Shown here: in pieces, positions 19,300 to 19,925 of the stretch
How positions within the stretch are numbered: position 1 is the stretch's first letter
Layout of the letters: every line of letters starts with the position of its first letter
Source of the DNA: Escherichia coli
Lineage (GTDB): Bacteria > Pseudomonadota > Gammaproteobacteria > Enterobacterales > Enterobacteriaceae
Direction: 5' to 3' (one strand)
DNA: 64,000 nt
Assembly: GCF_046105845.1 (NCBI RefSeq)
Contig: NZ_CP151004.1
Position numbers and translations under genes: made by a program
The notes under the pieces: model-generated
Seen by the model: only the letters and a program-made list of their open reading frames with translations
What the model was told of the DNA's origin: nothing
Database searches by the model: none

Positions 19300-19925
19300 T
19301 CTTTAAAGAAGAGCTCGTACGAAGGTACGGGCTTTTTTTTCGTATATTGCACACACCGGGGGATGAGAAGCCCCGACCGGGGTTCGACAACTGGCGACAG
19401 CCAGTTGGACAGACCGTGAACGCAGTGAGCGGGCTGCCCGCAGGGCGAGCGAAGCGAGTCAATCCCCCCTCACCGCCATCTTTAAAGAAGAGCTCGTACG
19501 AAGGTACGGGCTTTTTTTTCGTATATTGCACACACCGGGGGATGAGAAGCCCCGACCGGGGTTCGACAACTGGCGACAGCCAGTTGGACAGACCGTGAAC
19601 GCAGTGAGCGGGCTGCCCGCAGGGCGAGCGAAGCGAGTCAATCCCCCCTCACCGCCATCTTTAAAGAAGAGCTCGTACGAAGGTACGGGCTTTTTTTTCG
19701 TATATTGCACACACCGGGGGATGAGAAGCCCCGACCGGGGTTCGACAACTGGCGACAGCCAGTTGGACAGACCGTGAACGCAGTGAGCGGGCTGCCCGCA
19801 GGGCGAGCGAAGCGAGTCAATCCCCCCCTCACCGCCATCTTTAAAGAAGAGCTCGTACGAAAGTACGGGCTTCTTTTTCGTATATTGCACACACCGGGGG
19901 GATGAGAAGCCCCGATCGGGGTACT
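19300..19925. repeat. tandem array of ~179-bp units (3 full + 1 diverged partial) immediately 3' of serX; each unit ends with a copy of the tRNA 3' terminus
   Basis: Unit tctttaaagaagagctcgtacgaaggtacgggcttttttttcg...gagtcaatcccccctcaccgcca repeats from ~19300, 19479 and 19658; a diverged partial copy from 19838. Copies 1-2 appear identical; copy 3 has one extra C. Confidence 0.9.

Follow-up and report, generated by a model that had tools for sequence, protein, structure and literature searches.

Tandem repeats behind the serX tRNA gene of Escherichia coli as probable Ser-type members of the RtT family of tRNA-linked repeats

What is the array of near-identical repeats that starts at the very next base after the CCA end of serX, and whose full units each close on a copy of the 3' end of that same tRNA? 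The locus is a genuine integration hot spot: the initial annotation of this DNA named serX as a known island integration site, and so it is, as PAI-CFT073-serX and the SRL island, which excises from serX with 14-bp repeats, attest (PMC7545054). Two readings were put forward in that annotation: the units might be reiterated attachment-site footprints of integration and excision, or they might be a tandem amplification of the tRNA's 3' trailer with its own terminator. The latter has turned out to be essentially right and the former is abandoned below. In the 64,000-nt stretch of contig NZ_CP151004.1 (assembly GCF_046105845.1) that was analysed, referred to here as the window, the array is very probably the serX set of tRNA-linked repeats (TLRs), named rsX1-4 in E. 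coli K-12, which within the RtT RNA family (Rfam RF00391) make up the Ser-type branch. It is an already known element: that of tyrT has been known since 1978 and that of serX since 1999, and it figures in the K-12 reference and in Rfam.

The serX locus and its array

A single tRNA gene, the tRNA-Ser(GGA) gene serX, is found at the locus by ARAGORN. ghrA lies upstream of it on the minus strand, an arrangement that is also that of the K-12 serX locus, and a promoter-like site is situated ~35 nt upstream of the tRNA start. Tandem Repeats Finder (TRF) delimits the array at 19285-19922, with a period of 179, 3.6 copies, 98% matches, no indels and a score of 1237. The features are as follows.

19149..19177, plus strand: promoter-like site (TTGACC, 17-nt spacer, TAAATT; 9/12 matches in a consensus scan, and a consensus match only)
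19212..19299, plus strand: tRNA-Ser(GGA), serX (ARAGORN; Rfam tRNA match of 53.8 bits)
19300..19478, plus strand: unit 1, 179 nt (TRF; Rfam RtT match at 19344-19478, 43.1 bits, E = 2e-6)
19479..19657, plus strand: unit 2, 179 nt, identical to unit 1 (alignment; Rfam RtT match at 19523-19657, 43.1 bits)
19658..19837, plus strand: unit 3, 180 nt (alignment; Rfam RtT match at 19700-19837, 41.1 bits)
19838..19922, plus strand: partial unit 4 (terminator scan and alignment)
19929..20615, minus strand: convergent 228-aa ORF of the DUF2726 family (ORF list; context, not part of the element)

The initial annotation had described three near-identical units of ~179 bp and a diverged partial fourth, each with the trailer hairpin and U-run, a T-arm-like segment and a copy of the tRNA 3' end, and TRF, alignment, direct reading and the computed hairpin energies all bear this description out. 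A full unit has, from 5' to 3', the terminator of the serX trailer, then a structured core and, last, the 18-19 nt copied from the tRNA 3' end. Every unit opens with TCTTTAAAGAAGAGCTCGTACGAAGGTACGGGCTTTTTTTTCG, a hairpin and U-run; the hairpin has an energy of -13.9 kcal/mol for its G+C core and of -20.5 kcal/mol when the flanking A/U pairs are included, and the terminator is U-rich on both strands. What the units reiterate is the last 19 nt of serX (19281-19299), AATCCCCCCCTCACCGCCA. In unit 1 the terminator stem occupies 19313-19332 and the U-run 19333-19340, the RtT core starts at ~19357 and the tRNA 3'-end copy, 18 nt long and one C short of the tRNA, is at 19461-19478. The corresponding elements of unit 2 are a terminator at 19492-19519 and a copy, again one C short, at 19640-19657; unit 3 has its terminator at 19671-19698 and a copy with 7 C at 19819-19837, which carries AATCCCCCCCTCACCGCCA and is thus identical to the tRNA at 19/19 nt. 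The GGGGTTCGAC segment is present in all full units. Unit 1 folds better than its shuffles (minimum free energy of -76.6 kcal/mol, z = -4.46), and a consensus scan found no promoter inside the units.

The partial fourth unit retains a terminator, the fourth of the array (19849-19872), whose U-run is interrupted, and ~25 nt from the start of the core; it ends within the GGGGTTCGAC segment and stops at 19922, inside core helix P2. It has GAAAG for GAAGG, CTTCTTTTT in place of the U-run, and 6 G for 5 G, and resembles the K-12 variant (GAAAG, 6 G) in sequence. A breakpoint of this type is also present in L124, with the DUF2726 gene next to it there. In the window, the stop codon of the DUF2726 ORF is 7 nt past the end of the array (annotation assigns a homologous gene at this position to the DUF2726 domain-containing proteins). 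A functional partnership of this gene with the array was considered and rejected: a homologue beside a Ser-type array is found only in E. albertii, that is, only within Escherichia.

tRNA-linked repeats and the RtT family

The TLRs of E. coli K-12 number 22, are distributed over 10 loci and have 18-19 bp that are identical to the 3' end of the gene upstream (PMC8144298). rsX1-4 belong to this set, which dates from Rudd (1999), and are named in the supplement of the same paper, together with a 598-bp deletion at serX (PMC8144298). The window array lies directly 3' of a tRNA gene and on its strand, its units match the 3'-terminal 18-19 bp of serX (exactly in unit 3, less one C in units 1 and 2), and it is orthologous to the listed rsX1-4 locus. 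The orthologous array of K-12 MG1655, at the same ghrA-serX locus, is about 97-98% identical, which effectively excludes non-homology; NCBI annotates it as "RtT sRNA" x1-4. The two arrays have the same unit structure and the same complement of three full units and a partial one. They differ in array-wide variants (TCTTT, GAAGG and 5 G / 6 C in the window; TATTT, GAAAG and 6 G / 7 C in K-12), in the distal breakpoint, which is inside helix P2 in the window and after ...CACACACCGGG in K-12, and in the downstream gene, which is ycdU in K-12. The initial annotation had missed that the array belongs to the long-known TLR/RtT family and is rsX1-4 in K-12 (PMC8144298, supplement), and a literature search retrieved nothing that joins serX with RtT.

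Units 1-3 match the full-length Rfam RtT model (E = 2e-6 for units 1 and 2, 6e-6 for unit 3), and their scores of 43.1, 43.1 and 41.1 bits fall short of its gathering score of 45 bits. The K-12 orthologues score 46.3, 46.3 and 36.1 bits. Since the shortfall in the window comes down to a G and a C that helix P1 lacks, it reflects the position of a marginal subfamily at the threshold and does not signify non-homology. The Ser-type branch sits right at the gathering score: arrays that are one G-C pair short in P1 stay unannotated, and the near-identical K-12 units are annotated. Other Rfam matches at the locus (sX4, 34 bits vs a gathering score of 70; Thr_leader, 20-22 vs 55; Plastid-psbl-rps4, 30 vs 68) are far under their thresholds and overlap the tRNA or a terminator, and were therefore treated as due to chance or driven by the tRNA.

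The 178-bp repeats of tyrT/tyrV and the rtT RNA reportedly go back to work by Egan and Landy in 1978 and by Bosl and Kersten in 1991. The serX units share with them the core elements GATGAGAAG, CGAC, GGTTCGA, CCCGNAGGGCGAG and CGAGTNAAT, an outer helix P1, tandem arrangement with a similar period, and an end in the 3' end of the cognate tRNA; in the joint alignment of the Ser and Tyr types, it is these common core motifs, which are invariant there, and the closing of the outer helix on to the tRNA-like 3' end, that mark the serX units as RtT. The two types differ in the partner tRNA, in their T-stem-like helices (A-U in the Tyr type, G-C in the Ser type) and in the middle region, which has two hairpins in the Ser type and a tandem-G.A hairpin and one other in the Tyr type. 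Ser-type units open with a conserved intrinsic terminator, whereas the Tyr-type spacer is variable and lacks such a hairpin; Rfam RtT scores are 41-46 bits for the Ser type and 133-137 bits for the tyrT units.

Two further kinds of RNA from the same neighbourhood of stable-RNA genes invite comparison. RrA, RrB and RrF, encoded downstream of 5S rRNA, likewise repeat at their 3' end 18 bp of the end of the upstream gene, a repeat for which a role in directing RNase E processing has been proposed, but they have another core, their GGA motifs bind CsrA, and they are single copies (PMC8144298). 3'ETS-leuZ, a tRNA 3' external transcribed spacer with the role of an sRNA sponge, is, like the putative RNA considered here, derived from downstream of a tRNA in a common transcript (PMC8144298). 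It lies between the CCA and the operon terminator, whereas the serX cores lie past the first intrinsic terminator, and it has neither a tRNA 3'-end copy nor tandem repetition.

Conservation across species and variation in E. coli

One genome per species was scanned, for 100,044 species, with exact matches to GATGAGAAG, CGAC and GTTCGA required. The scan yielded 118 loci, almost all of them in Enterobacterales, with ~105 cores of the CTT..AAG kind behind tRNA-Tyr and ~49 of the CCC..GGG kind behind tRNA-Ser(GGA). No core was found behind any other tRNA in this exact-motif scan of 100,044 species, which would miss diverged relatives in such positions. Most Ser-type arrays are syntenic, adjoining ghrA and/or phoH, in Citrobacter, Enterobacter, Klebsiella, Kosakonia, Pluralibacter, Yokenella, Franconibacter and E. 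albertii.

The core, of ~105 nt, is structured, and over about ten genera there are compensatory double changes in the terminator, in P3, P4 and P6, and in P1 where the tRNA end itself changes. In the terminator stem, for example, one pair is UA 14 times, CG 6 times, and GC and AU once each, and another is CG 15 times and UA 6 times. Helix P1 is 90.7% paired in the joint alignment, and two of its pairs switch from AU (21) to GC (19). Across P1 and P2, four pairs switch from AU (21 Tyr-type) to GC (18-19 Ser-type), which is one evolutionary event seen in many sequences and not many independent events. The covariation score of the whole structure was reached by none of 500 shuffles, and slid controls scored much lower. 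The long-range helix of the Rfam model and the local hairpins P2 and P5 are both compatible with these data. An GGGGGAUGAG-CUCACCGCC pairing that RNAalifold proposed from the Ser-type units alone was not adopted, because the Tyr type keeps GAUGAG but has another acceptor strand, so that the helix is not family-wide.

Units follow their own tRNA. Across species, the 18-nt match is exact in 27 of 41 Ser-type units and 116 of 131 Tyr-type units, and lineage-specific variants of the tRNA 3' end recur in the units: those of Pantoea tRNA-Ser, the ...CCCCCGCCACCA variant of tRNA-Tyr (reproduced in units at 11 loci) and that of E. ludwigii tRNA-Tyr (reproduced in 6 units). In Pantoea and E. ludwigii the 5' strand of P1 compensates. 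Units of the same array are 95.8% identical, against 80.8% for units of different arrays, 20 of 25 units have their nearest relative in their own array, and the window units share variants that are absent from all K-12 units.

Copy number varies across E. coli serX loci, where the initial annotation had advised looking for such variation. The Ser-type core is present in 3,365 of 5,426 complete E. coli genomes, at 8,050 places and with a median of 2; it is absent from 38% of these genomes, including one ST131-type locus that was examined directly. Arrays of 5.6, 4.4 and 3.4 copies were also examined directly, so the range is from 0 to at least 5.6. At least 80% of a 901-bp query is present in about a thousand complete E. 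coli genomes. Two assemblies of MG1655 disagree (3.4 vs 4.4 copies), and the copy number in any single assembly may therefore be off by one unit.

That the units are footprints of integration and excision at serX, or that their ends serve as extra attachment sites, is an idea with several attractions. The islands at serX (SRL PAI, PAI-CFT073-serX, O157-type) use the last 14 nt of the gene, CCCCCTCACCGCCA, and these 14 bp, which one serX island has as a direct repeat at its far end, are contained in every unit end. The array also borders a variable region (DUF2726 here, ycdU...pga in K-12) and, in island-bearing strains, lies just past the island integrase gene. The island repeat, in the one island in which it was examined, is however 14 bp long and set amid island DNA, whereas the units copy 18-19 nt of the tRNA and set them amid core and trailer. 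Between the repeated tRNA ends there is no island-derived DNA; what lies there is a conserved, structured RtT core that is homologous to the tyrT repeats and has changed in compensatory fashion in about ten genera. A unit query had no match in 50,697 phage genomes. A chimeric query that joined a unit end to the left end of the O157-type island found the junction in none of 5,426 complete genomes at >=80% coverage, and its best matches all start at the real tRNA, which this island end always abuts; this query covers one island family. Homogenisation of the units within an array also speaks against scars, since independent scars would not be homogenised. A search of plasmids gave 40 matches, 36 of them in non-mobilizable plasmids, and these provided no evidence of mobility (several of the best are to records of 4.8-5.4 Mb, the size of a chromosome, or to large pieces of E. 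coli DNA filed as plasmids, and most of the matches seem to be chromosomal). On the junction query, the examination of both island ends and the phage search, the footprint and secondary-attB readings were rejected; we consider them very improbable.

It is easier, if still unlikely in our view, to regard the array as functionless: decaying remnants of a duplicated tRNA gene and trailer that are homogenised by recombination and drift neutrally in copy number. The spread from 0 to 5.6 or more copies, the lack of the core in 38% of genomes, the limitation of expression by a strong terminator ahead of each unit and the construction of a strain without any of the 22 TLRs (PMC8144298) all suit this reading. 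Drift and homogenisation alone would not preserve base pairing, yet the terminator, P3, P4, P6 and P1 have undergone compensatory double changes, the cores persist syntenically beside ghrA and/or phoH over many genera, and GATGAGAAG, CCCGNAGGGCGAG and CGAGTNAAT are common to the Tyr and Ser types. Distinctly unlikely, too, is a released RNA that acts in trans as a regulator or sponge in the manner of 3'ETS-leuZ or of the Hfq- and CsrA-binding RrA/B/F TLRs. rrA, rrB and rrF lie between two terminators, as the serX cores do; read-through produces them, and in vitro they bind both Hfq and CsrA (PMC8144298), and RtT RNA levels differ between Klebsiella strains; but the 19 TLRs of tRNA operons, rsX among them, have CsrA-binding scores of <0.01 (PMC8144298), and conservation of the core is highest where it is paired or tRNA-like, not in an open seed region. 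A small protein, like the "protamine-like" Tpr ORF of the tyrT repeat, is scarcely credible as the product of the units. K-12 does annotate tpr (29 aa) inside rttR, and mechanical ORFs of 66-150 aa cross the window array on both strands; these start at TTG or GTG, however, and merely follow the repeat, no Ser-type unit of the alignment has a conserved ATG-initiated frame, and 1-2-nt indels between genera, together with paired compensatory changes, make up the pattern of an RNA and not of a reading frame. Finally, the disagreement between the two MG1655 assemblies might be taken to suggest that the array is a collapsed or expanded repeat of the assembly, for which there is next to no chance: three full units are present in the arrays of about a thousand complete genomes, the K-12 reference among them, and collapse would not create the differences that distinguish the window's units (5 G / 6 C in units 1 and 2, 7 C in unit 3 and a K-12-like unit 4).

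How a unit might work

Transcription of serX would mostly stop at the first predicted terminator, 14 nt past the CCA, and each further unit would be transcribed only by read-through of the terminator that precedes it; with a strong terminator before every unit, expression of units 2 and 3 may be negligible. The copied tRNA end corresponds to the end of the T loop, the 3' strand of the T stem, the acceptor 3' strand, the discriminator base and CCA. In the structural model, helix P1 forms between the G-run at the 5' side of the core and the C-run of the copied T stem and acceptor; the end of the RNA would consequently resemble the top half of the cognate tRNA, from which ...CACCGCCA projects as a single-stranded tail.

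By analogy with the tyrT rtT RNA and with RrB, the tRNA 3'-maturation enzymes might handle the tRNA-like end and A/U-rich trailer of read-through transcripts: RNase E could cut just after the CCA, exonucleases could trim back to the helix, and a discrete structured RNA of ~170 nt ending in CCA would be released. In the cited literature, release from the tRNA primary transcript as a discrete RNA has been shown for tyrT rtT only, and the K-12 annotation of rttR begins 7 nt beyond the CCA of tyrV and has its end precisely at the CCA of unit 1. The 3' end of RrB maps beside its 18-nt repeat, and RNase E has been proposed as the enzyme (PMC8144298). In Klebsiella, RNA-seq has also revealed RtT RNAs. 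The K-12 strains that have been built include one from which all 22 TLRs are deleted, so any function is dispensable in E. coli, and the sole phenotype ever reported for rtT was retracted (PMC8144298).

Comparison of the sequences shows that copy number changes through gene conversion and unequal homologous recombination, in which units exchange with one another and with the tRNA end and its trailer. The same processes keep the units alike and hold their 3' ends to the sequence of the tRNA, as in concerted evolution, and the terminator and core helices are maintained by selection.

A more speculative step, to which we give only a small probability, is to regard the RtT core as a mimic that reproduces, for each cognate tRNA specifically, the top half of that tRNA. 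The tRNA 3' end, the 3' end of the unit and the complementary 5' strand of the core change together, and the core contains counterparts of both strands of the cognate T stem, each matched by a complementary sequence. The motif that was searched for lies behind two tRNAs only, tRNA-Tyr and tRNA-Ser(GGA), both of which are class II tRNAs with a long variable arm. This would suit an RNA that is selected to interact with something specific to the cognate tRNA, for which maturation or CCA-repair enzymes, a factor that binds tRNA ends, and the tRNA precursor are candidates; it could then be a decoy, a titrator or a cis-acting processing module, and neither a generic sRNA nor junk.

For the family as a whole, the covariation across genera argues for selection on an RNA, and not only on a DNA repeat, and it argues against integrase scars in spite of the integration hot spot at which the serX array is placed. 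The natural variation in copy number at serX, from none to at least 5.6, amounts to a natural experiment on the function of the TLRs, a question more than 45 years old.

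The serX array and its surroundings

The gene serX, for tRNA-Ser(GGA), is the sole tRNA gene that ARAGORN finds in the window, and the array behind it is the single one that Tandem Repeats Finder reports (period 179, 3.6 copies, 98% matches, score 1237). The boundaries of its units were read directly.

Features of the serX locus in the window
19212-19299, plus strand: tRNA-Ser(GGA) gene, serX
19285-19922: tandem array
19300-19478: unit 1
19479-19657: unit 2, identical to unit 1
19658-19837: unit 3
19838-19922: partial unit 4

The initial annotation had described an array directly behind serX whose units end in a copy of the tRNA 3' terminus, and ARAGORN, Tandem Repeats Finder and direct reading agree that this is accurate. 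Every unit starts at its 5' end with TCTTTAAAGAAGAGCTCGTACGAAGGTACGGGCTTTTTTTT, a hairpin of -13.9 kcal/mol (-20.5 when flanking A/U pairs are included) that is followed by eight U; read on the minus strand, this hairpin precedes CUCUUCUUU and is likewise flagged as terminator-like by the scan. Full units end with AATCCCCCC(C)TCACCGCCA, which is the final 18-19 nt of the tRNA. In K-12, serW, the twin of serX, has the same trailer and terminator, with no core behind them. This comparison indicates that the unit is made up of an ancestral trailer and terminator, to which a structured core and a copy of the tRNA end have been joined; the proposal that a trailer with its own terminator had been tandemly amplified was right.

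Upstream of serX lies ghrA, on the opposite strand, as it does at K-12 serX. Downstream, a convergent DUF2726 gene (19929-20615, minus strand), with its stop codon 7 nt from the array end, is the only gene between the array and phoH (21178-22101). The K-12 serX-to-phoH interval instead holds ycdU, ymdE, IS3, dgcT and pgaABCD, so that the array borders a variable segment. The DUF2726 gene was considered as a partner of the array and rejected, since it lies beside the array in Escherichia only. In the K-12 clpA-serW interval (locus L122, 1254-1281) there is a CRISPR-DR4 match of 50.1 bits (gathering score 35), with two copies of ...CTGTACGGCAGTGAAC downstream of the serW terminator; it corresponds to the orphan CRISPR remnant known to lie between clpA and infA.

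Identity of the repeats and the attachment-site proposal

The serX array is a real but already-known element. The Rfam model of RtT, RF00391, aligns over its whole length to all three units (window 19344-19837): units 1 and 2 score 43.1 bits each (E = 2e-6) and unit 3 scores 41.1 bits (E = 6e-6), slightly below the gathering score of 45. In MG1655 the orthologous array, directly after serX and ~98% identical, consists of three complete units plus a short fourth one; the K-12 orthologues reach 46.3, 46.3 and 36.1 bits, against 133-137 bits for the tyrT units, around which the family is centred. The Ser-type branch, comprising the cores behind tRNA-Ser(GGA), thus sits at the detection limit of the model: many E. 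coli genomes have 1-4 "RtT sRNA" features at serX in the NCBI annotation, and the annotated K-12-type units have one G-C pair more than the window-type variant, whose genomes (H1, H2) carry no RtT annotation. Such tRNA-linked repeats (TLRs) were first observed at tyrT in 1978; K-12 has 22 of them at ten loci, and all of them carry 18-19 bp that match the upstream tRNA or rRNA gene exactly at its 3' end. Their function is not known, and the sole rtT phenotype reported was retracted (PMC8144298). The supplement of the same paper names the serX repeats rsX1-4 and lists their 598-bp deletion in a strain from which all 22 TLRs are missing.

serX is an integration hot spot, as the initial annotation had it, and where the far end of one such island was read, a 14-bp repeat, CCCCCTCACCGCCA, is followed by the array. 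The suggestion that the units are reiterated att footprints of integration and excision nevertheless fails. The tRNA copy in the units is 18-19 nt long, against 14 for the island repeat; what lies between successive copies is a conserved core and not island DNA; and a phage genome search turned up no genome matching the unit. When a unit end was joined in silico to the left end of the O157-type island, the one island family covered, none of the 5,426 complete E. coli genomes contained this junction, and all best matches started at the real tRNA. In one island-bearing strain (L124, 2638-4014) a tyrosine recombinase gene at the far island end adjoins the 14-bp repeat and the displaced array, and in O157 (L123) the toxin-antitoxin (CbtA/YeeU) end of the island abuts the real tRNA.

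Distribution, fold and concerted evolution

A pattern scan, open at the T-stem positions, of 100,044 species (one genome each) yielded 118 loci, almost all in Enterobacterales. ARAGORN places ~105 CTT..AAG cores behind tRNA-Tyr(GTA) (Tyr-type) and ~49 CCC..GGG cores behind tRNA-Ser(GGA), with none behind any other tRNA at these loci. Ser-type arrays of 1-4 units occur in Citrobacter, Enterobacter, Klebsiella, Kosakonia, Pluralibacter, Yokenella, Franconibacter, Pantoea and E. albertii; most share the window's position beside ghrA and/or phoH, and infA/serW is the site of a few. Pluralibacter, Klebsiella and Franconibacter (L044, L090, L093, L119) have two tRNA-Ser(GGA) genes ~3.2 kb apart downstream of ghrA, with an RtT unit of normal length behind both in L090 and a unit confirmed behind only one in the other three. 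Some Ser-type units (L042, L043, L084, L093, L119) measure 257-259 bp, ~76 nt more than the usual ~181 bp. A contig labelled Chryseobacterium sp. 18061 (L081), with a typical enterobacterial tRNA-Tyr and two RtT units, is probably contamination or mislabelled.

In an alignment of 19 Ser-type and 21 Tyr-type cores from many genera (A3), both types share GATGAGAAG, CGAC, GGTTCGA, CCCGNAGGGCGAG and CGAGTNAAT. The fold of the unit is far more stable than that of shuffled sequence (z = -4.46). In the predicted outer helix, P1, the 5' G-run pairs with the copied T-stem and acceptor C-run, leaving ...CACCGCCA single-stranded beyond it. In P1 and in a second helix, P2, the A-U pairs of the Tyr type become G-C in the Ser type (AU 21 vs GC 19; UA 20-21 vs CG 18-19), matching the T stem of the partner tRNA exactly; this switch is one event seen across many sequences. 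Independent compensatory changes are found in the terminator stem (UA 14, CG 6, GC 1, AU 1; CG 15, UA 6), in the middle hairpin (AU 15, GC 6, and others) and in helix P6 (CG 19, GC 9, AU 3, UA 1). The covariation score of the whole structure was reached by 0 of 500 shuffles, and slid controls scored far lower. The long-range helix of Rfam also fits the data, as an alternative for part of the fold, and the tandem G.A motif that a published covariation analysis reports in RtT is present in the Tyr-type middle hairpin. A second middle hairpin (columns 117-141 of alignment A2) comes in two versions, GACCG...CGGGC and GATGAC...GGAATC, each common to several genera (Citrobacter, Enterobacter, Kosakonia).

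Lineage-variant tRNA 3' ends reappear in the units of that lineage: a Pantoea tRNA-Ser variant, ...CCCCCTCTCACC, is copied in its units, a tRNA-Tyr variant, ...CCCCCGCCACCA, in those of 11 loci (23 units), and the E. ludwigii tRNA-Tyr variant in 6 of 6, with a compensating G-to-A change in the 5' strand of P1 in Pantoea and E. ludwigii. Identity among units is 95.8% within an array and 80.8% from one array to another, 20 of 25 units have their nearest relative in the same array, and the window units share variants absent from all K-12 units. The pattern is one of concerted evolution in which the helices are under selection. Across Citrobacter species the first units match each other, and the second unit has its closest counterparts in units 2 and 3 of the other species; together with the hairpin versions common across genera, this means that multi-unit arrays are older than these species.

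Copy number, expression and meaning

The initial annotation had suggested comparing copy number across E. coli, and the number of core matches does vary, from 0 to 11 per genome. A 104-nt core query, leaving out the tRNA-like end, matched 8,050 places in 3,365 of the 5,426 complete genomes (median 2 among positives), and 38% have no core. The one ST131-type locus that was read retains only a degenerate partial unit, abutting dgcT. E. coli SL124 (L126, 2423-4564) has 5.6 units at serX and 9 core matches in the whole record; an IS5-like element lies between its array and the DUF2726 gene. Two assemblies labelled K-12 MG1655 are one serX unit apart (4.4 copies in AKVX01, L127 761-1564; 3.4 in the reference NC_000913.3, L003), whether because the stocks truly vary or because the assemblies do.

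With a strong, conserved terminator in front of every core, transcription can reach a core by read-through alone. The annotated tyrT rtT RNA starts 7 nt past the tyrV CCA and ends at the CCA of the unit; the end of RrB adjoins its 18-nt repeat, and RNase E has been proposed as the enzyme (PMC8144298). In Klebsiella, RNA-seq picks up RtT RNAs. By analogy with tyrT rtT and RrB, serX read-through transcripts would be cut after each CCA and then trimmed, giving a ~170-nt RNA ending in CCA.

At its end each unit resembles the top half of its tRNA, and recombination keeps units and tRNA end alike while altering copy number. Whatever function the array has, it is dispensable in E. coli. What interest remains lies in the function of the family, in its strict linkage to tRNA-Tyr and tRNA-Ser (the searched motif turned up behind no other tRNA), and in Ser-type units that stand at the limit of what the Rfam RtT model detects.
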